A program made the translations under genes and the position numbers. 7,068 bases of DNA, taken from positions 1 through 7,068 of the forward strand of contig DAOOON010000033.1 of NCBI GenBank assembly GCA_035387745.1, written 5' to 3'. The notes beneath the pieces are model-generated. The model was not told the origin of the DNA, made no database searches, and saw nothing but the letters and a program-made list of their open reading frames with translations. Every line of letters starts with the position of its first letter. The stretch's first letter is position 1. This document shows, piece after piece, positions 1 to 7,068 of the stretch. The DNA comes from an archaeon (GTDB lineage Archaea; Iainarchaeota; Iainarchaeia; Iainarchaeales; CSSED10-239).

Positions 1-1319
1 TGCACCTCAAATAATTCTTGTATAATACTAATAATATTTATCATTATTATTATAAAACCATATATCAACAACAGAAAAATAATTGGCAGAATATAACTTG
101 AATCTAATTTGTGATTTGTATACTTAAAAGACAGGCCCATAAAGTATATTGAAACCAATAAAGAGACAAATAAGATTATGATAATTGAATTAACATTTAA
201 AATGTTTGATAAATTAATAGTAATGTCCCCCCAAACAATACCATATTGAATAAAATTTAATAGATGATAATAAGAATATTCAATAAAATTTGCAATAATA
301 TTATAAGCAGATCTAAAAATTAAAGCCATACTCATAATTAATATAAATAAAGAATAGGGCAGATAATAACCAAAGATACCCAACTTTTTATTAAATAAAA
401 AAGACAAATATCTATTTGTGGTATCGATTCCCCCTCTTGCCCATCTTATTCTTTGTATATAATATTTCTTCCAAGTATTCGGGACATCGGTCTTCGCTTT
501 TGCATCAACCACAAAATGGATAGTTTTCCCTCTATCGATTAATTTATATGCTAGATCTTTGTCTTCTGTAATATTGTGCTCGTTGTAACCACCAACTGCT
601 AGAAAATCCTTTCTTTTAAATAAGCATAAAGCGCCGGTTCCAATATCTAATGACCCCATTGATGTTAATACCATTCTGGGTAACCCAAAACTAAAATTAT
701 ATTCTATGGCCTGAATCTTTTCAACAAATTTTTTTGTATTTGTTACTCCGATTACTCCCACAACAATACCAACATTCCCTTTTAAAGAACCAGTCATCTT
801 CATTAATGCGTCTTTTTCTGGGAGGGTGTCTCCATCAACTTCAAAAATGTTTTCTTCGGTTATGTGCTTTAGGCCTTGGTTTATGATTACTGACTTTAGA
901 TTCTTCTTACTTTTTAAAAAATATTTCTTGTCAATTAGTATAGGCTTTACTTGTTTATCTTTTTTTAAGAATGTACATGTGCCATCTGTAATAACATAAA
1001 TATTAAATGGAATAGGATATTTTAATTTTTTTAATTGGTTTATTGTTTTCTTTATCGGTGTCCAATTACCAAAAGCATATGTTACAACTGCAACAGTTGG
1101 CGGGTTTTCTGGAAATGGCTCTGCTTTTGAAATTTCAGAATATTTTTTAGAAATAAGTATAGACAATATCAAAAAATAAAAATAAACAGCCAAAATAAAC
1201 AATTGAAGATAAACGCTTATGGCTTTTACAAAGATAGTGAAAGACAAAATAATTAGAATGACCAATATATAAAATAATTTTCGTTTTAAAAATGATTTTA
1301 TATTATTTAAGAATGCCAT
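1..1319 (-). CDS. Family-2 (GT-A fold) membrane-embedded processive glycosyltransferase; C-terminus cut off by the window edge
   Basis: Absent from the ORF track because it has no stop in the window. Translating the minus strand from ATG 1319..1317 gives 439 uninterrupted codons down to position 3 (checked triplet by triplet), with an in-frame TAA 21 nt upstream of the ATG. The product starts MAFLNNIKSFLKRKLFYILVILIIL and has two N-terminal hydrophobic helices. It carries the processive GT2 signature: VAVVTYAF/YVITDG, DxD-type VDGDT (825..839), TEDKDL (555..569) and QRIRWARGG, i.e. Q(R/Q)xRW (432..455). Several C-terminal hydrophobic helices follow. Confidence 0.85.
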   Translation of the reverse strand, partial: MAFLNNIKSFLKRKLFYILVILIILSFTIFVKAISVYLQLFILAVYFYFLILSILISKKYSEISKAEPFPENPPTVAVVTYAFGNWTPIKKTINQLKKLKYPIPFNIYVITDGTCTFLKKDKQVKPILIDKKYFLKSKKNLKSVIINQGLKHITEENIFEVDGDTLPEKDALMKMTGSLKGNVGIVVGVIGVTNTKKFVEKIQAIEYNFSFGLPRMVLTSMGSLDIGTGALCLFKRKDFLAVGGYNEHNITEDKDLAYKLIDRGKTIHFVVDAKAKTDVPNTWKKYYIQRIRWARGGIDTTNRYLSFLFNKKLGIFGYYLPYSLFILIMSMALIFRSAYNIIANFIEYSYYHLLNFIQYGIVWGDITINLSNILNVNSIIIILFVSLLVSIYFMGLSFKYTNHKLDSSYILPIIFLLLIYGFIIIMINIISIIQELFEV

Positions 1320-1342
1320 ATTTTTCAGAATATCAAAAATTT

Positions 1343-1358
1343 AAAAAAAGAAATAAAA
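1343..1358 (-). terminator. Oligo-T tract downstream of Alba (possible archaeal intrinsic terminator)
   Basis: The minus strand reads TTTTATTTCTTTTTTT immediately after the Alba TAA stop. Archaeal RNA polymerase terminates at oligo-T runs. A TTTAAATT TATA-like element follows about 26 nt upstream of the GT2 ATG. This is sequence pattern only. Confidence 0.3.
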
Positions 1359-1637
1359 TTATTTATTTAATTTTATTTCGATTGCTGACACTTTCATAGG
1401 GGTATTATTTTCTGTAGTTATCTCTTCTGTTGAAATAACTATGTCAGATACCTTTACTGTATTAACAAATTTGTTCTTCACAATCTCTGCAACATCAACG
1501 GCTTTAGAAATTGTCTTTCCTCTTGCTTTGATCATAACAGTATCTGTGCCTTGATTGAATTGTGTTATAACTGCTAATACATATGACATTGTACCTTTTT
1601 TTCCGATGTATATTGTATTTCCTTCCATTTCGCTCAT
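1359..1637 (-). CDS. albA: Alba (Sac10b family) archaeal chromatin / DNA-RNA-binding protein
   Basis: The 92-aa product matches the Alba family along its whole length: NTIYIGKKGTMSYVLAVITQFNQG...IKARGKTISKAVDVAEIVKNKF...IEIKL. A strong Shine-Dalgarno sits 5 nt upstream and the stop is TAA. Confidence 0.95.
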   Translation of the reverse strand: MSEMEGNTIYIGKKGTMSYVLAVITQFNQGTDTVMIKARGKTISKAVDVAEIVKNKFVNTVKVSDIVISTEEITTENNTPMKVSAIEIKLNK

Positions 1638-1642
1638 TGTAT

Positions 1643-1652
1643 ATCATCCCCC
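1643..1652 (-). promoter_or_regulatory. Shine-Dalgarno site for Alba
   Basis: The minus strand reads GGGGGATGAT, complementary to the archaeal 16S rRNA 3' end consensus, with 5 nt spacing to ATG 1637..1635. Confidence 0.6.
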
Positions 1653-1729
1653 TTTAATAGATGTATTATTGAATTATATATTTATTTAAACAAAATGTTT
1701 AAAAACAGGCATTTTTATATATTTATATT
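1653..1729. promoter_or_regulatory. AT-rich divergent promoter region between Alba and the 1743 gene, with TATA-like boxes
   Basis: TTTATTTAAA (1681..1690) and TTTTTATATATTTATAT (about 1712..1728) resemble the archaeal TATA consensus TTTAWATA and can be read on either strand. No transcription start site data are available. Confidence 0.3.
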
Positions 1730-1735
1730 GGAGGT
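1730..1735 (+). promoter_or_regulatory. Shine-Dalgarno site for the 1743 CDS
   Basis: GGAGGT lies 7 nt upstream of ATG 1743. This supports the internal start over the track start at 1695. Confidence 0.6.
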
Positions 1736-1742
1736 AATTACT

Positions 1743-2165
1743 ATGCCTAGTATTGAAGTACATTGTGCAATTTCAAAAAAAAGAACAGGGGAAAGTTTTA
1801 AAGAACTACATGAATGGATTGATGAACCCGGAACTTTAAAAGGAGCAGAACATAGACTTGATAGACACAGATATACAGAAGAAGATAGAGATTATATTAA
1901 GAAAATATGGGATCTTAAACTTGGTGCGGGTGGCGGAAACAAAGCCATAGTTGAATGGTTATTTCACATTGCTATGGACTATATGGATGTTGGATTTAAA
2001 ATGTCAAATACTATTTATGAAAATAATCAAAACAATGTATTTATGTTTGGATTTAATAATGAAGGAAACATACATACAACATTTGGTACGATAGATAAGA
2101 CAGAATTAAACAAAATTTCAGAAAGCTATCTTTATGACCCAAATGCAGACTTTGAATATTATTAA
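1743..2165 (+). CDS. Small conserved-looking hypothetical protein (140 aa) with a His/Asp-rich N-terminal motif
   Basis: The track ORF is 1695..2165. I prefer the start at M17 (MPSIEVHCAIS...) because of the GGAGGT site upstream, and because the 16 extra residues (MFKNRHFYIFILEVIT) look like AT-rich noise. The N-terminal half shows the pattern H-x3-S-x11-H-x-W-x-D-x9-HR-x3-H, followed by VEWLFHIAMD. The stop is TAA. Function is unknown. Confidence 0.7.
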   Translation: MPSIEVHCAISKKRTGESFKELHEWIDEPGTLKGAEHRLDRHRYTEEDRDYIKKIWDLKLGAGGGNKAIVEWLFHIAMDYMDVGFKMSNTIYENNQNNVFMFGFNNEGNIHTTFGTIDKTELNKISESYLYDPNADFEYY

Positions 2166-3364
2166 ATTATTTTTTTTATTTTTTTCAAAGTTTCTGCTAA
2201 TTTTTCTATTTCTTCTTTTGTGTTATAGAAATAAAATGAGGCCCTAACAAGCCCATCTTTATTAAATCTCGAAACAATTGGCTCTGCACAATGCATACCT
2301 GCACGCGTTGCAATGTTACCATATTCGTCAAGAAGAGAAGAAAGCTCTCTTGATTTTATGCCTTTTAAATCGAAAAGGACAATTGAACCTTGCTTTTTAG
2401 AATCGCAAGGATTGTAAAGTTTTAAACCTGGAATATTATTTAATTTGTCAAACGCATAATCTGTTAAAATCTTATCTTGTCTTTCAATATTATCCATTCC
2501 CACTTTTTTTAAATAATCAATTGCAGCTAGTGTCCCAAAGGCACCAGCAATGTTTGGCGTTCCTGCTTCGAATTTATTTGGCAAATCATTCCAGGTTGAT
2601 CTTTGTAAAGTAACGTGCTCAATCATATCCCCACCAAATCTTACCGGAGAAAATTTTTCAAGAAGTTTTTCTTTACCAATCAACACGCCAACACCTGTAG
2701 GCCCAAGCATCTTATGCATTGTACAAACAAAGAAATCAATATTTAATTTTTTAAAATCGATTTTTCTGTGTGGTGCAGACTGAGAACCATCAACACACAC
2801 TAAAATGTTTTTTTCTTTTGCAATATCTACAACCTCTTTAATAGGAGCAATAACTGCTGTGGTGTTTGAGATGTGCGCTATAGTTATTAGCTTTGTTTTA
2901 TTTGTTATTTTCTTTTTAAAATCAGAAAGATTTAAGGTATAGTCTTTATTGATCTCTGCAAATTTTAATTTCAAACCAAGCTTTTGAGAAAGAAACTGCC
3001 AAGGCACAAGGTTTGCGTGGTGCTCATAGACTGTTGTTAAAATCTCGTCTCCTTTCTTGAAATAATTGCTATTGTATAGCATATACATTATGACATTAAG
3101 AGAATCAGTACTGTTATGAGTCAATATAACTTCTCTAGGAGAACAATTAAAAAATTTAGAAAGATCTGTGTGACAATCCTCATAAGCAATGCTTGCTTCT
3201 TGAGATAATTTGTAAACTCCTCTATGAATATTAACTGGGCAATTTCTATAATAATAATCTATGGCTTTAATTACAGAAAGAGGTTTAAAACTTGTTGCAG
3301 CATTATCTAAATATGTTGTTTTGTTTAATATTGGAAAGTCTTTTCGATATTTTTCTAAATTCAT
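2162..3364 (-). CDS. sufS: Cysteine desulfurase, SufS/CsdA-type (group II, class V PLP aminotransferase fold)
   Basis: MNLEKYRKDFPILNKTTYLDNAATSFKP is the canonical SufS N-terminus. The PLP-lysine motif is CTMHKMLGPTGVGVL (Lys codon 2711..2713). The group II active-site motif is TRAGMHCAEP (Cys codon 2288..2290). I place the start at ATG 3364..3362 (400 aa) rather than the track start at 3565, because the 67-aa extension is low-complexity and hydrophobic and overlaps rpl44e on the opposite strand. Confidence 0.9.
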   Translation of the reverse strand: MNLEKYRKDFPILNKTTYLDNAATSFKPLSVIKAIDYYYRNCPVNIHRGVYKLSQEASIAYEDCHTDLSKFFNCSPREVILTHNSTDSLNVIMYMLYNSNYFKKGDEILTTVYEHHANLVPWQFLSQKLGLKLKFAEINKDYTLNLSDFKKKITNKTKLITIAHISNTTAVIAPIKEVVDIAKEKNILVCVDGSQSAPHRKIDFKKLNIDFFVCTMHKMLGPTGVGVLIGKEKLLEKFSPVRFGGDMIEHVTLQRSTWNDLPNKFEAGTPNIAGAFGTLAAIDYLKKVGMDNIERQDKILTDYAFDKLNNIPGLKLYNPCDSKKQGSIVLFDLKGIKSRELSSLLDEYGNIATRAGMHCAEPIVSRFNKDGLVRASFYFYNTKEEIEKLAETLKKIKKII

Positions 3365-3495
3365 GTGTTTTTCACGTTTACCTCTTGAAATTAATATATA
3401 GGCAATCTTTTTAAATAAATATGGGACAATATATATTATATAGAGTAAGCTAAAAAAGGACTCTTTTTTTAATATTTCTAAAAAAATGATTATAT
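3365..3495. promoter_or_regulatory. AT-rich divergent intergenic region between sufS and rpl44e, with TATA-like elements
   Basis: The region contains several TTTAAATA / TATATATT-type elements on both strands. TTTAATAT lies about 27 nt upstream of the rpl44e ATG. This is pattern only. Confidence 0.25.
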
Positions 3496-3780
3496 ATGAA
3501 GATACCAAAGCAAATAAAGACATACTGTAGAAAATGTAAAAAACACCAGCCACATAAGCTTTCACAATACAAATCTAGAGGCGCAAGAACCTTGGCCGTA
3601 GGTACTAGAAAAAATGTTAGAAAGCACAAAAAAGGTTATGGTGGAATGGCAAAGCACATTGCAACAGTTAAAAAGCAGAATAAAAAACCAGTGTTTACTG
3701 CGGAATGCTCTGTATGTAAAGCAAAGCATTACTATGTTATTCCAAAGAAAATGAAAAAAACAGAATTTAAGACCGACTAA
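3496..3780 (+). CDS. rpl44e: 50S ribosomal protein L44e (eL42)
   Basis: The 94-aa basic protein starts MKIPKQIKTYCRKCKKHQPHKLSQYK and contains GYGG. It has the four-Cys zinc ribbon C11/C14 and C71/C74 (CSVCKAK) typical of L44e. The stop is TAA. Confidence 0.95.
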   Translation: MKIPKQIKTYCRKCKKHQPHKLSQYKSRGARTLAVGTRKNVRKHKKGYGGMAKHIATVKKQNKKPVFTAECSVCKAKHYYVIPKKMKKTEFKTD

Positions 3781-3784
3781 AGTC

Positions 3785-3803
3785 TTTATTTTTCTGTTTC
3801 TTT
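3785..3803 (+). terminator. T-rich tract downstream of rpl44e (possible terminator)
   Basis: TTTATTTTTCTGTTTCTTT begins 5 nt after the rpl44e stop, which fits archaeal oligo-T termination. Confidence 0.3.
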
Positions 3804-3807
3804 AGTA

Positions 3808-3837
3808 TTTTTAAATTCATCTATAATATATTTATAG
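3808..3837 (+). promoter_or_regulatory. TATA-like elements upstream of the membrane-protein/ATPase gene pair
   Basis: TTTTTAAATT (3808..3817) is centred about 27 nt upstream of ATG 3839, consistent with a leaderless or short-leader transcript. A second element, TATAATATATTTATAG, follows. Confidence 0.3.
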
Positions 3838-3838
3838 T

Positions 3839-4513
3839 ATGAAATTTGATACAATATATAAATTTGTAGCCGCTAGTTTGGCTATAGCTTATTTTATTGG
3901 ATTGCTTGTGGGACTTGTTGTTTTTAATTTTAATATTAGAAATTATCAAGAAACAGATATCACTAGATCTTTTTATTTCTCTGGACAAATTAGTTTTAGC
4001 GAAGTCTTTTCAGAGACGCTAGAAAGTTCTTTTAAAATCGCTATATTGCCTTTTTCTTTTATTATTATTGGAACTAAAACAGGATTTACGCATGCAACAT
4101 ATATATTGTCACCATTTTTAGGGCAAATTAAACTTGCAACTCTTTTAATCCCTGCTATTTTTTATTTTATAACTTATATTATTTTGTCTGCTATTGGAAT
4201 AAAATTGTTTGCTACAATAATTATATTTTTTGTAAACAAAATACTTAAAAAAGAAAAAAAACAAATTATAAAAACAAAATTATTACAGAAAGACGATATC
4301 TTTTTATTATATGTTGCGATTGTCTCGATAATTATTGGGGCAATAATACAAGTATATCTTTCTAGAATATTTTTTATATTTTTGATTAATCTTCAACTTA
4401 TAACTTATATTCTAATTATAATTATATATCTTGGAATTATTATAGTTTCTTTTACTATACTTTATAATATAATTAAATCAGTTATTGGAAATAATAAACA
4501 AAAATTATGGTAA
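3839..4513 (+). CDS. Polytopic integral membrane protein of unknown family (224 aa)
   Basis: By eye there are about 5-6 hydrophobic helices, for example FVAASLAIAYFIGLLVGLVVFNF, LATLLIPAIFYFITYIILSAIG, IFLLYVAIVSIIIGAIIQVYL and ITYILIIIIYLGIIIVSFTILY. A Lys-rich loop (KILKKEKKQIIKTKLLQKDD) lies in the middle. The TAA stop at 4511..4513 is 3 nt before the ATPase ATG, and both genes share one frame. Confidence 0.75.
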   Translation: MKFDTIYKFVAASLAIAYFIGLLVGLVVFNFNIRNYQETDITRSFYFSGQISFSEVFSETLESSFKIAILPFSFIIIGTKTGFTHATYILSPFLGQIKLATLLIPAIFYFITYIILSAIGIKLFATIIIFFVNKILKKEKKQIIKTKLLQKDDIFLLYVAIVSIIIGAIIQVYLSRIFFIFLINLQLITYILIIIIYLGIIIVSFTILYNIIKSVIGNNKQKLW

Positions 4514-4516
4514 AAT

Positions 4517-7068
4517 ATGGGAATTGATTTTGAATCTGAAGAAATAATTGTGGGCAGAATCCAAAGCCACATAAAAAAATACGGAAAGAAAGGAACAGGC
4601 TATATAGGTAAAGTCGTGGTATCTAGCGGAGAAGAACCAGTACTTGGAAAAAAAGTTTTAATGGATGTCTCTAGATCACATGTTGCAATTGTTTGCGGAA
4701 AAAGAGGTGGGGGTAAATGCCTTACTGGAAACACCTTAATTACATTAGAAGACGGCAGAGAGATACCAATCAAAGATTTAGAAAAAGAAAATAAAAAAAT
4801 AATTTCTTTACAAAACAATCTTAAATTAAAATGCAATAAAAAATATCAATTCTATAAACGTACTGCTGATAAAACTTTAAAAATAACCTTAAGAAGCGGT
4901 AAAAAAATAGAATTAACCCCCGAACACCCGCTATTAACAATAAATGGTTGGAAAGAATCTAAGGAATTAAAAAAAGGAAGTCGTATTGCCACCCCCAGAA
5001 TTATTCCTAAATTTGGAAATAAAAAGCTTCCTGACTGCGAAGTTAAATTATTAGCGTATTTAATCGCAGAGGGCCATTTAGGGAATAGTTTTGTGTTATT
5101 TTGTAATACTGATAAAAAGATTATTTCAGAATTTACTGCTGCCGTAAACAAATTTGATAACAAACTCACAATTAACAAACACGGCAATTTTAACCTACGA
5201 ATTGTTGATAACAATAACATCAGAAAAATAATCAAAAATCAAAGAAATGACAGACAACAATTTAGTAAAGGCATCGTTTTTGATAAAAAATCTTCGATTA
5301 GAAAATATCTTGAAAAAATTAATTTGTATAATGTAAAATCAGAAACTAAATTTGTCCCAGAAACTATATTTCAATTACCTAAAGAACAACTTTCCATTTT
5401 CTTAAATAGACTGTTTTCTTGTGATGGCACAATTTATTTTGATAAAAATAAAAATGAATATAATATATCTTATTCGTCTTCATCTCCTAAATTAATACAA
5501 CAGATCCAAAGTTTACTTTTAAGATTTGGATTGCTTTCGATAATTAGAACAAAGAAAACCAAAAAATTACCAAATTATGAACTAAAGATCCTTTCGTCTC
5601 AAAATATTGAATTTATTAAAAAAATCGGGTTTTTTGGAAATAAAAAAGAAATACAAAAAAAAGTAAAACTAAAATCTAGTAATCCGAATGTAGATACAAT
5701 TCCTAAAGAAATTTGGAATATCTATAGACCAAAAAACTGGGCAATAATTGGTAAAGAATTTGGATACAAATTACCAAAAGCATTAAGGTCATCAATCAAT
5801 AATTCTCCATCAAGAGAAAAACTATTTAAAATTGCAAATTTCGAAAAAAATGAAGAGCTTAAAAAAATTGCGACAAGCGATATCTTCTGGGACGAAATTC
5901 AGGATATAAAAAAAATAAACAAAAAACAAATTGTGTATGACATAACAGTTCCAGAAACTCACAATTTTGTAGCAAATAATATTATTGTTCATAATAGTTA
6001 CACTATGTCTGTTCTGATAGAAGAATTTGCAAAACAACCATTTGAAATTAAAGAAAGGTTATCTGTTATTGTTATTGACACTGTCGGAATATTTTGGACT
6101 ATGAAATATCCAAATAAAGACGAGACGGAACTTCTTGAAAAATGGAATCTAAAACCAGACGGAATAGAAATCAGAAACCTTGTGCCTTTTGGTAAGAAAG
6201 ACTTCTATGAACAAAAGAATCTCCCACATGACGGGTATTTCTCTATAAGAACTTCGCAAATGGATATTGAAGACTGGTTGGGTGTATTTAGACTTAATTG
6301 GAGGGATGCAGAATCGTCTTTGCTTTCAAGAACCATAGAGAAAATAAAAAATAAGGTTGGAAGCCTCTTTGATATTGACGATATCATGAATGAAACAAAA
6401 AAAGACGCAGAAACCTCACAAGAAATAATTAATTCTCTTAACAACAGATTTCTTGTTGCTAAATCTTGGGGGCTTTTTTCTAGATCCGGAACAACAATGA
6501 AAGAGTTTGCAAAGCCAGGAACAATAACTATTGTTGATACTAGTACCTACAAAGAAGCAATTGGCATGGAATCCATTAAAGAACTAATTGTTGGAATACT
6601 AGGTAAAAGATTATATGAAGAAAGAATGCTATACAGAAAAGAAGAAGAGATGAGTTTATTAACTGGCGGAAGAAAAGAAAGCGAGATGCCAATTATCTGG
6701 ATGATGATTGATGAAGCACACATGTTTATGCCTAGCGACAGACAATCAATGGCGCTTGATGTTTTGTTACAGTGGATTAGAGTTGGGCGGCAGCCTGGTT
6801 TATCTTTACTTCTTGCAACACAAAGACCAAACAAACTTCATAACGAAGCAATATCGCAATGTGATTTTTTCTTAAGCATGAGAATGACTTCTCAAGAAGA
6901 CATTATGGCTGTTTCGTCTATTAGGCCAAGCTATCTTAATATTCCTATGGATAAATATTATGGACAGATGCCAAAAGACCAAGGCTTTGCAATACTTCTA
7001 GATGATAATTCTGAAAAAGTAATGCTAATAAAAGTTAGACCCAGAATTACTTGGGATGGTGGAAAGAC
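4517..7068 (+). CDS. FtsK/HerA-superfamily (DUF87/COG0433-like) P-loop ATPase precursor containing an intein; 3' end beyond the window
   Basis: Absent from the ORF track because it has no stop in the window. Translation from ATG 4517 gives 850 uninterrupted codons to 7066 (every codon checked). The N-extein is 67 aa and ends ...LMDVSRSHVAIVCGKRGGGK. The C-extein begins SYTMSVLIEEFAKQ... After removing the intein, Walker A reads GKRGGGKS. Walker B is IIWMMIDEAH (6692..6721). A superfamily-typical LLLATQRP motif follows (ATQRP = 6815..6829), and the visible end reads VRPRITWDGG. Confidence 0.85.
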   Translation, partial: MGIDFESEEIIVGRIQSHIKKYGKKGTGYIGKVVVSSGEEPVLGKKVLMDVSRSHVAIVCGKRGGGKCLTGNTLITLEDGREIPIKDLEKENKKIISLQNNLKLKCNKKYQFYKRTADKTLKITLRSGKKIELTPEHPLLTINGWKESKELKKGSRIATPRIIPKFGNKKLPDCEVKLLAYLIAEGHLGNSFVLFCNTDKKIISEFTAAVNKFDNKLTINKHGNFNLRIVDNNNIRKIIKNQRNDRQQFSKGIVFDKKSSIRKYLEKINLYNVKSETKFVPETIFQLPKEQLSIFLNRLFSCDGTIYFDKNKNEYNISYSSSSPKLIQQIQSLLLRFGLLSIIRTKKTKKLPNYELKILSSQNIEFIKKIGFFGNKKEIQKKVKLKSSNPNVDTIPKEIWNIYRPKNWAIIGKEFGYKLPKALRSSINNSPSREKLFKIANFEKNEELKKIATSDIFWDEIQDIKKINKKQIVYDITVPETHNFVANNIIVHNSYTMSVLIEEFAKQPFEIKERLSVIVIDTVGIFWTMKYPNKDETELLEKWNLKPDGIEIRNLVPFGKKDFYEQKNLPHDGYFSIRTSQMDIEDWLGVFRLNWRDAESSLLSRTIEKIKNKVGSLFDIDDIMNETKKDAETSQEIINSLNNRFLVAKSWGLFSRSGTTMKEFAKPGTITIVDTSTYKEAIGMESIKELIVGILGKRLYEERMLYRKEEEMSLLTGGRKESEMPIIWMMIDEAHMFMPSDRQSMALDVLLQWIRVGRQPGLSLLLATQRPNKLHNEAISQCDFFLSMRMTSQEDIMAVSSIRPSYLNIPMDKYYGQMPKDQGFAILLDDNSEKVMLIKVRPRITWDGGK
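4718..5995 (+). mobile_element. Class-1 intein (426 aa) with LAGLIDADG homing endonuclease, inserted in the Walker A P-loop
   Basis: Block A is Cys1, CLTGNTLITLEDG (TGC 4718..4720). Block B is TPEH (4916..4927). LAGLIDADG motif 1 is LLAYLIAEGHL (5048..5080) and motif 2 is FLNRLFSCDGT (5399..5431). A block H-like segment reads SSPKLIQQIQSLLLRFGLLS. Block F is VYDITVPETHNFVAN and block G is IIVHN (Asn 5993..5995). Ser+1 follows at 5996..5998. Excising 1278 nt (426 codons) keeps the frame and restores GxxGxGKS. Confidence 0.9.

Follow-up and report, generated by a model that had tools for sequence, protein, structure and literature searches.

Positions 1-7068 of the archaeal contig DAOOON010000033.1 (a stretch of 7,068 nucleotides, termed here the window) include an open reading frame (ORF) in which the Walker A motif of an ATPase is interrupted by 426 codons. 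The question that this locus raises is whether the interrupting segment is an intein that can be spliced out of the protein and, if so, how it came to lie in this gene. From sequence analysis and structure prediction we consider, with a probability of about 0.93, that it is a genuine class-1 homing intein, located at the Walker A K-S position (hyphens in motifs denote the splice junction) of a chromosomal gene coding for a HerA-fold (DUF87) ATPase of an uncultured DPANN archaeon, and that it behaves as a selfish homing element which has been gained, kept and lost within the lineage. The homing intein is probably active.

Identification of an in-frame insert in the Walker A coding sequence

The reading frame starts on the forward strand at an ATG at position 4517, preceded by an in-frame stop codon at 4511, and remains open for 850 codons up to the end of the window. 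At the base composition of the window (29% G+C), a run of 426 stop-free codons has a probability of about 6e-17, and one of 850 codons, as in the ATPase/intein frame, of about 5e-33. Residues 1-67, corresponding to the N-terminal extein, end in ...HVAIVCGKRGGGK. The insert begins with the Cys encoded by nucleotides 4718-4720 (codon 68) and its last residues, up to nucleotide 5995, are ...NNIIVHN. The C-terminal extein opens with SYTMSVLIEEF.

The initial annotation had placed the insert at 4718-5995, splitting GK from S. This could be confirmed to the base: the insert lies between Lys67 and Ser68, and a syntenic contig of 429 kb (L001) lacks exactly these 1278 bp, the difference being clean and in frame. 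Nucleotides 1-4717 of the window align with L001 3483-8201, and nucleotides 5993-7068 with L001 8199-9274, at 91% nucleotide identity. In L001 DNA the intein-less insertion site reads TGCGGAAAAAGAGGAGGGGGAAAA directly followed by AGCTACGCTATGTCTGTTCTGATA, and the P-loop coding sequence is highly conserved, its consensus being TGCGGAAAAAGAGGAGGGGGAAAA followed by TCCTAC... The L001 product (P0001), which is 97% identical to the spliced extein, reads CGKRGGGKSY. The junction CGKRG[G/S]GKS[Y/F] is unbroken in 13 of the 13 aligned sequences (the extein spliced in silico and 12 intein-free homologues, 54-97% identical), so that removal of the insert restores GKRGGGKS, as had been proposed. No homologue carrying the segment as an ordinary domain was found; all proteins that have the segment show GK-C and HN-S at its borders.

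The 64-kb contig Ga0116242_10000850 (L084) of JGI metagenome 3300010355 contains the sequence of the window with 100% identity. The gene is closed there, at nucleotides 6679-9252, with a product of 857 aa (431 + 426); it has already been called, the called gene carrying precomputed matches to Intein_splicing, LAGLIDADG_3 and DUF87. The complete end of the C-terminal extein, ...WDGGKTANVFVD followed by the stop codon, is read in L084. The gene looks unreported in the window because the window stops seven codons before the stop codon. Hence, the claim that no closed-ORF caller would report this gene holds within the cut window, but not for the longer contig.

With respect to base composition, the intein contains 26.6% G+C, versus 35-37% for both exteins (0.20 versus 0.24-0.29 at third codon positions). 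The value of the intein is near the genome-wide average (29%) and that of the adjoining membrane-protein gene (23%); being the G+C content of the intein close to the genome average, it provides no evidence for a recent foreign origin. Antisense ORFs inside the insert (4600-4836, 4852-5235 and 5822-6037) lie opposite strongly purifying-selected sequence; they were judged spurious and not searched.

The insert is a class-1 intein with a nested homing endonuclease

Searches with intein, Hint and LAGLIDADG profiles gave in all instances matches above the curated cut-offs: 102 bits for Pfam Intein_splicing (PF14890; cut-off 35.8), 52 bits for NCBIfam TIGR01445 intein_Nterm (24.5), 32.9 bits for TIGR01443 intein_Cterm (15.6) and 66 bits for Pfam LAGLIDADG_3 (PF14528; 22.5). 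The class-1 blocks that had been read from the sequence, that is, Cys1, TPEH, two LAGLIDADG motifs, block F, the terminal HN and Ser+1, are all present at their expected positions (Table 1). Residues C1, T67, H70, D408, H415, H425, N426 and S+1 are conserved across 17 genome-derived alleles.

An AlphaFold model of the intein, built on 38 sequences, has a predicted local distance difference test score (pLDDT) of 92.8. When it was compared with solved structures by using Foldseek, the top PDB matches were full-length, endonuclease-bearing inteins: TliVMA (7qss; template modelling (TM) score 0.73 on query length), PhoVMA (7qst; 0.61), PI-PfuI, PI-TkoII and PI-SceI. The splicing halves of the model superpose on the Mtu RecA and Npu DnaB mini-inteins with a root-mean-square deviation of 1.2-1.5 Å. 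Among solved structures, the closest by sequence are the Npu and Ssp DnaB mini-inteins (4o1r and 1mi8; E 1e-18 and 1e-16); the TliVMA, CDC21 and Pho RadA inteins come next. By its boundaries, its profile matches, its catalytic residues and its modelled Hint fold, the insert is a canonical class-1 intein, and splicing is predicted.

In the same model, the endonuclease region comprises two alpha-beta-beta-alpha-beta-beta-alpha halves. Its acidic catalytic residues are replaced in two alleles: L011 shows a D to N change, and L075 combines an E to T change with a deletion that leaves 355 aa. Such decayed alleles are an outcome predicted by the homing cycle. To estimate selection, the window was compared with the closest allele, that of L008 (85% amino acid identity). 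The ratio of non-synonymous to synonymous substitution rates (dN/dS) is 0.08 when the whole intein is considered; the splicing part by itself gives 0.084 and the endonuclease part 0.073. Both the splicing and the endonuclease activities appear therefore to be maintained by selection.

The host gene codes for a HerA-fold ATPase

The spliced extein matches Pfam DUF87 (PF01935, "Helicase HerA, central domain") with 49 bits, above the cut-off of 23.2. It does not reach the curated cut-offs of the HerA equivalogs NF040819 (47.6 versus 970 bits) and NF040937 (33.6 versus 800 bits), and its score for Pfam FtsK_SpoIIIE (PF01580), 19.3 bits, is below the gathering score of 24. The AlphaFold model of the intein-free protein P0001 (pLDDT 88) gave as top Foldseek matches HerA from T. 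kodakarensis (9x1l, E 1e-18) and from S. solfataricus (4d2i, TM 0.67). Further matches correspond to the anti-phage SIR2-HerA and DUF4297-HerA complexes. Both the host and these HerA translocases combine an N-terminal beta domain with a RecA-like core (TM 0.60-0.67), but sequence identity is only 12-19% and the host is shorter (about 431 aa versus 500-600 aa). On the basis of the profile match and the modelled fold, the assignment of the host as a HerA-fold ATPase is justified, and that of HerA orthologue is not. The previous designation as a HerA/FtsK-type ATPase is therefore appropriate as a fold class, but cannot be extended to membership of the HerA equivalogs or of FtsK.

Across 54 homologues without the intein, residues G61, K62, R63, G64, G66, K67 and S68 do not vary, and the P-loop, Walker B and other motifs of the interrupted extein are identical to those of the intein-free orthologues. 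Extein dN/dS is 0.057 when the window is compared with L008, within a range of 0.027-0.057. A search with the spliced extein gave thousands of homologues; of the 120 best, none shows an insert and nearly all have a length of 430-436 aa. Those that are named are labelled Candidatus Iainarchaeum, Diapherotrites or ainarchaeum.

In public records, intein-bearing members (for instance P0121, P0122, P0124, P0133 and P0165) are listed by JGI as "replicative DNA helicase" and by NCBI as "LAGLIDADG family homing endonuclease". As these names have been carried over from the intein itself or from DnaB inteins, the host ATPase remains hidden, a point which annotators should take into account: they mask the function of the host.

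Some distant members of the family also show other arrangements. In P0243, P0245, P0267, P0281 and P0285 the Walker B motif is interrupted by a second, endonuclease-bearing intein (VDE-CLP...VHN-CHEF), which looks unrelated to the P-loop intein. Some distant members carry both the P-loop and the Walker B inteins and reach about 1300 aa, and in P0267 the P-loop site is occupied by a mini-intein of about 190 aa. Residue +1 at the Walker B site of the window is Ala, which is unable to act as a splice nucleophile.

Distribution and inheritance of the intein

The prevalence of the intein was drawn from the 80 best loci of the family in GTDB species-representative genomes. A first protein search was unsuited for this purpose: intein-bearing members were absent among the matches listed, probably because their split exteins score as separate pieces. 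At least 20 of the 80 GTDB loci show a Cys directly after GKRGGGK. In 19 of them the insert was measured, at 355-433 aa, and that of L014 was extracted as a 422-aa intein. Loci L079 and L080 are probable additional carriers, since the matches to their exteins are interrupted at this position. Among the genomes with an intein at this site is a complete one, that of "Ca. Forterrea multitransposorum" (CP045477.1). On a neighbour-joining tree of the exteins the intein is patchily distributed, and sister pairs with and without it were found (window/L001, L072/L016, L078/L029 and L082/L056).

A wider view was obtained from a collection of 5.8 billion proteins. The same junction (G[KA][RK]GxGK-C or HN-S[YF]) is found in 105 of the 120 nearest intein matches, and almost all of the 105 match also the host extein. 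The source names of same-site matches include six DPANN phylum names, that is, Diapherotrites and Woese-, Nano-, Pace-, Micr- and Parvarchaeota. An exhaustive search of representative proteins yielded full-length precursors of 853-873 aa. Within the clade of the window, divergence is somewhat more rapid in the intein than in the extein (85 versus 90% identity, and 56 versus 77%). Intein identity then remains at about 47-55%, whereas that of the extein drops to 33-40% in Woesearchaeota-type hosts, a pattern suggestive of horizontal spread among DPANN lineages. When a viral vector was looked for in IMG/VR, the intein gave a single match at 23% identity, which was uninformative.

Predicted splicing and homing, and alternative explanations

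The route by which class-1 inteins splice is well established, and it is known that the Ser of Walker A coordinates Mg in P-loop NTPases. When applied to this locus, an 857-aa precursor would be translated in which the split P-loop should keep the ATPase inactive; it is reasonable to infer that the unspliced precursor is ATPase-dead. Cys1 would then perform an N-S acyl shift at the Lys67-Cys1 bond, and the hydroxyl group of Ser+1 would attack the resulting thioester by trans-esterification, giving a branched intermediate. Cyclisation of Asn426, helped by His425 and block F, would release the intein, and an O-N shift would form the Lys67-Ser68 peptide bond, yielding the mature 431-aa ATPase with GKRGGGKS. 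The freed intein (about 49 kDa) could act as a site-specific endonuclease and cut intein-less alleles at the P-loop coding sequence, and repair from the intein-bearing copy would spread it by homing.

Some observations weigh against the homing interpretation. When the window and L008 are compared, synonymous divergence (dS) is 1.05 both for the intein and for the extein; the equality speaks for vertical co-inheritance within the sub-lineage followed by loss in L001, L004 and L003, and not for a recent gain. This comparison suggests co-inheritance and loss but is a rough one, being dS near saturation. A co-conversion tract was looked for in 30-nt bins along both extein flanks, and no signal of L008-like versus L001-like sequence was obtained. 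The endonuclease could moreover be inactive by virtue of changes outside its two motifs.

The equal dS values would also fit long vertical retention of an intein domesticated as a conditional switch, in which splicing awaits a cue (redox, temperature or metal) and controls activation of the HerA-like ATPase, the intein being retained for this reason. Conditional splicing of P-loop/ATPase-domain inteins, such as those of Pho RadA and mycobacterial DnaB, has been documented (PMC4513877, PMC6195587, PMC7360933), and selective retention of P-loop inteins has been argued for (PMC4760082). An invariant Cys60, located eight residues before Cys1, might in principle form a disulfide with it. Nevertheless, the intein is dispensable: it is missing altogether from the closest relatives, whose exteins are 97, 93 and 90% identical, and its presence is patchy across the tree. 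The endonuclease is selected as strongly as the splicing part, which fits continued homing, whereas a switch needs no endonuclease. No regulation-specific features were found, and we consider such a switch improbable.

The insert could also be a dead intein relic or a non-splicing domain, and the gene a pseudogene or one coding for a permanently split P-loop protein with another role; the decay of the endonuclease in two sister alleles speaks in favour of this. It is nevertheless very improbable in view of the splicing residues, all of them intact, the frame open over 857 codons, the purifying selection on both extein and intein, and the identity of the extein motifs to those of intein-free orthologues. 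The metagenomic origin of the contig raises as well the question of an assembly or binning chimera, the assembler having joined the intein of another gene into the ATPase gene. The chances of this are practically negligible: the same insert is found at the same codon in many independent assemblies and in the closed genome CP045477.1, both flanks are collinear with L001, and the insert keeps the reading frame and has junctions that are specific to the extein. A homing intein which has come and gone within the lineage accounts best for the patchy distribution and for the selection on both of its parts.

Comparison with known inteins

Inteins inserted between the Lys and the Ser or Thr of Walker A are well known, and that of Pyrococcus RadA also belongs to this type. 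The position has been termed the "classic" P-loop insertion, with TerL1-a of a mycobacteriophage as an example (PMC5050341), and P-loop inteins have been documented for many ATPases, among them DnaB (site b), MCM (site a) and RFC-S (site a) (PMC4760082). The intein described here shares with them the GK-S/T position, the +1 nucleophile which is at the same time the Mg-coordinating residue of Walker A, the class-1 organization (Cys1...HN) and the nested LAGLIDADG endonuclease; it differs from them in its host, a DUF87/HerA-fold ATPase of DPANN archaea. HerA, DUF87 and FtsK are absent from the main text of PMC4760082. The searchable literature contains no paper that combines intein with DUF87 or COG0433, and the titles and abstracts of papers that combine intein with HerA, DPANN or Forterrea point to none on the present allele. 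The DUF87/HerA-fold family seems thus to be undescribed as an intein host in the searchable literature. The intein itself is a standard member of a well-known kind, which automated pipelines already flag in public records.

With the Npu and Ssp DnaB mini-inteins the intein shares nearly identical F/G blocks (HNFVANNIIVHN). These inteins are bacterial, engineered or natural, and lack an endonuclease. They are found in motif H4 of DnaB and not in the P-loop. TliVMA and PhoVMA (PMC8966425) are, as the present intein, archaeal, endonuclease-bearing and inserted in an ATPase, but sequence identity to them is 18-20% and their host is the A subunit of a V-type ATPase, which is not HerA-like.

We also considered the nearest non-allelic inteins (P0210, P0213, P0215, P0218, P0222, P0225, P0232, P0234-P0236, P0239 and P0240; 32-37% identity). 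All 12 are located at the Walker A K-S/T of other ATPases: DnaB-like, DnaX/RFC-like, Rad51-like and AAA_5/MoxR-like proteins, and one unassigned P-loop protein. That the relatives are all at K-S/T suggests a P-loop-specific intein lineage moving between non-homologous genes, a relatedness which rests on similarity ranking and not on phylogeny. Transfer of inteins from P-loop to P-loop between non-homologous proteins has been proposed for Anaeramoeba (PMC10710043). Both cases involve related inteins at the same P-loop position of unrelated ATPases; the hosts are here DPANN archaea and a bacterium labelled Pacebacteria (DnaX/RFC-like) instead of a eukaryote. A broader scenario, which we find rather unlikely, is that a single K-S/T intein lineage hops among HerA-like, DnaB-like, DnaX/RFC-like, Rad51-like and MoxR/AAA_5 genes by means of the short P-loop coding sequence that they share, with the small genomes of DPANN archaea and candidate-phyla bacteria as its reservoir, and that its retention may provide the HerA-like ATPase with a post-translational on-switch.

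The current understanding of inteins is not changed by this finding. It adds a DPANN ATPase of about 431 aa with the DUF87/HerA fold to the hosts invaded at the classic K-S/T position, and lends archaeal support to the movement of P-loop inteins between unrelated ATPases, an idea proposed for a eukaryote. It also provides an unusually clean data set on the homing cycle, in which a single gene tree mixes full-size alleles with decaying and absent ones and includes an intein-free partner with 97% protein identity. For practical use, the intein is a well-behaved candidate module for splicing and DNA cleavage, with Ser+1 at its junction.

Gene neighbourhood

The coordinates of the intein, of the host gene and of neighbouring ORFs in the window are shown in Table 1.

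Table 1. Features of the window and the evidence on which each of them is based.
Feature	Coordinates	Strand	Evidence or remark
Open frame running off the window start	3-1340	-	Counterpart in L001 and L084: a gene of 444 aa, family-2 glycosyltransferase-like
ORF, 156 aa	1695-2165	+	Between Alba and aminotransferase genes; no Pfam family
Polytopic membrane protein, 224 aa	3839..4513	+	Ends 3 nt before the ATPase start codon
N-extein, 67 codons	4517..4717	+	Covers the small beta domain at the N-terminus and Walker A up to Lys67; orthologue N-termini 82-97% identical
Walker A, N-terminal part GKRGGGK; last residue invariant Lys67	4697..4717	+	Translation
Class-1 intein, 426 codons; Hint splicing domain split by LAGLIDADG homing endonuclease	4718..5995	+	Profiles, synteny, model
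Block A CLTGNTLITLEDG; Cys1 nucleophile	4718..4756	+	Cys1 and Gly13 invariant in 38-sequence alignment
Block B TPEH (Thr67, His70)	4916..4927	+	T67 and H70 invariant in 38-sequence alignment
Homing-endonuclease region, about intein residues 106-385, with helical C-terminal part	5033..5872	+	LAGLIDADG_3 match
LAGLIDADG motif 1, LLAYLIAEGH; catalytic Glu118	5048..5077	+	Glu kept in 16/17 alleles
LAGLIDADG motif 2, LNRLFSCDGT; catalytic Asp236	5402..5431	+	Asp kept in 15/17 alleles
Blocks F and G QIVYDITVPETHNFVANNIIVHN (Asp408, His415, His425, terminal Asn426)	5927..5995	+	intein_Cterm match
Ser+1, C-extein nucleophile and Walker A Ser68 of the mature protein	5996..5998	+	Translation
C-extein, 357 of 364 codons, RecA-like ATPase core; window end cuts the last 7 codons and the stop	5996..7068	+	DUF87 match
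Walker B region MMIDEAH, uninterrupted	6701..6721	+	D306, E307, A308 and H309 invariant in 54 intein-free homologues

The window and L001 share the gene order glycosyltransferase, Alba, hypothetical protein, class-V aminotransferase, ribosomal protein L44e, 224-aa membrane protein and ATPase. Several segments of the membrane protein are hydrophobic, as would fit about 4-6 transmembrane helices, and a Pfam search with it gave no family. It lies directly upstream of the ATPase gene in 15 related loci and evolves fast (36-88% identity), which hints at a membrane-associated role for the HerA-fold ATPase. This arrangement differs from that of the HerA translocases mentioned above: next to the host gene there is a polytopic membrane protein, and no nuclease or defence-effector family was detected within about 6 kb. 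Specifically, NurA, Mre11, Rad50, SIR2 and DUF4297 gave no profile matches among the neighbours within this distance in L001 and L084, where several neighbours have no family match.

A HerA of a defence system was also considered, and PADLOC gave only partial matches to the C-terminal ATPase core. The neighbourhood being a housekeeping one (Alba, class-V aminotransferase, ribosomal protein L44e), the interpretation as a defence island was rejected.

No Rfam families or tRNA genes were found in the window, and promoter-like and terminator-like matches in it are at background level. The ORF located between the Alba and the aminotransferase genes codes for 140 aa in L001 and for 156 aa in L084 and L085. 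Downstream of the window, L084 includes genes that are extra with respect to the intein-free L001 (L084 nucleotides 10038-10406 and 11284-12218). They correspond, by weak matches, to an Asp_decarbox-like gene and to a UPF0175/DUF3368 pair, and the latter could be a toxin-antitoxin-like module.

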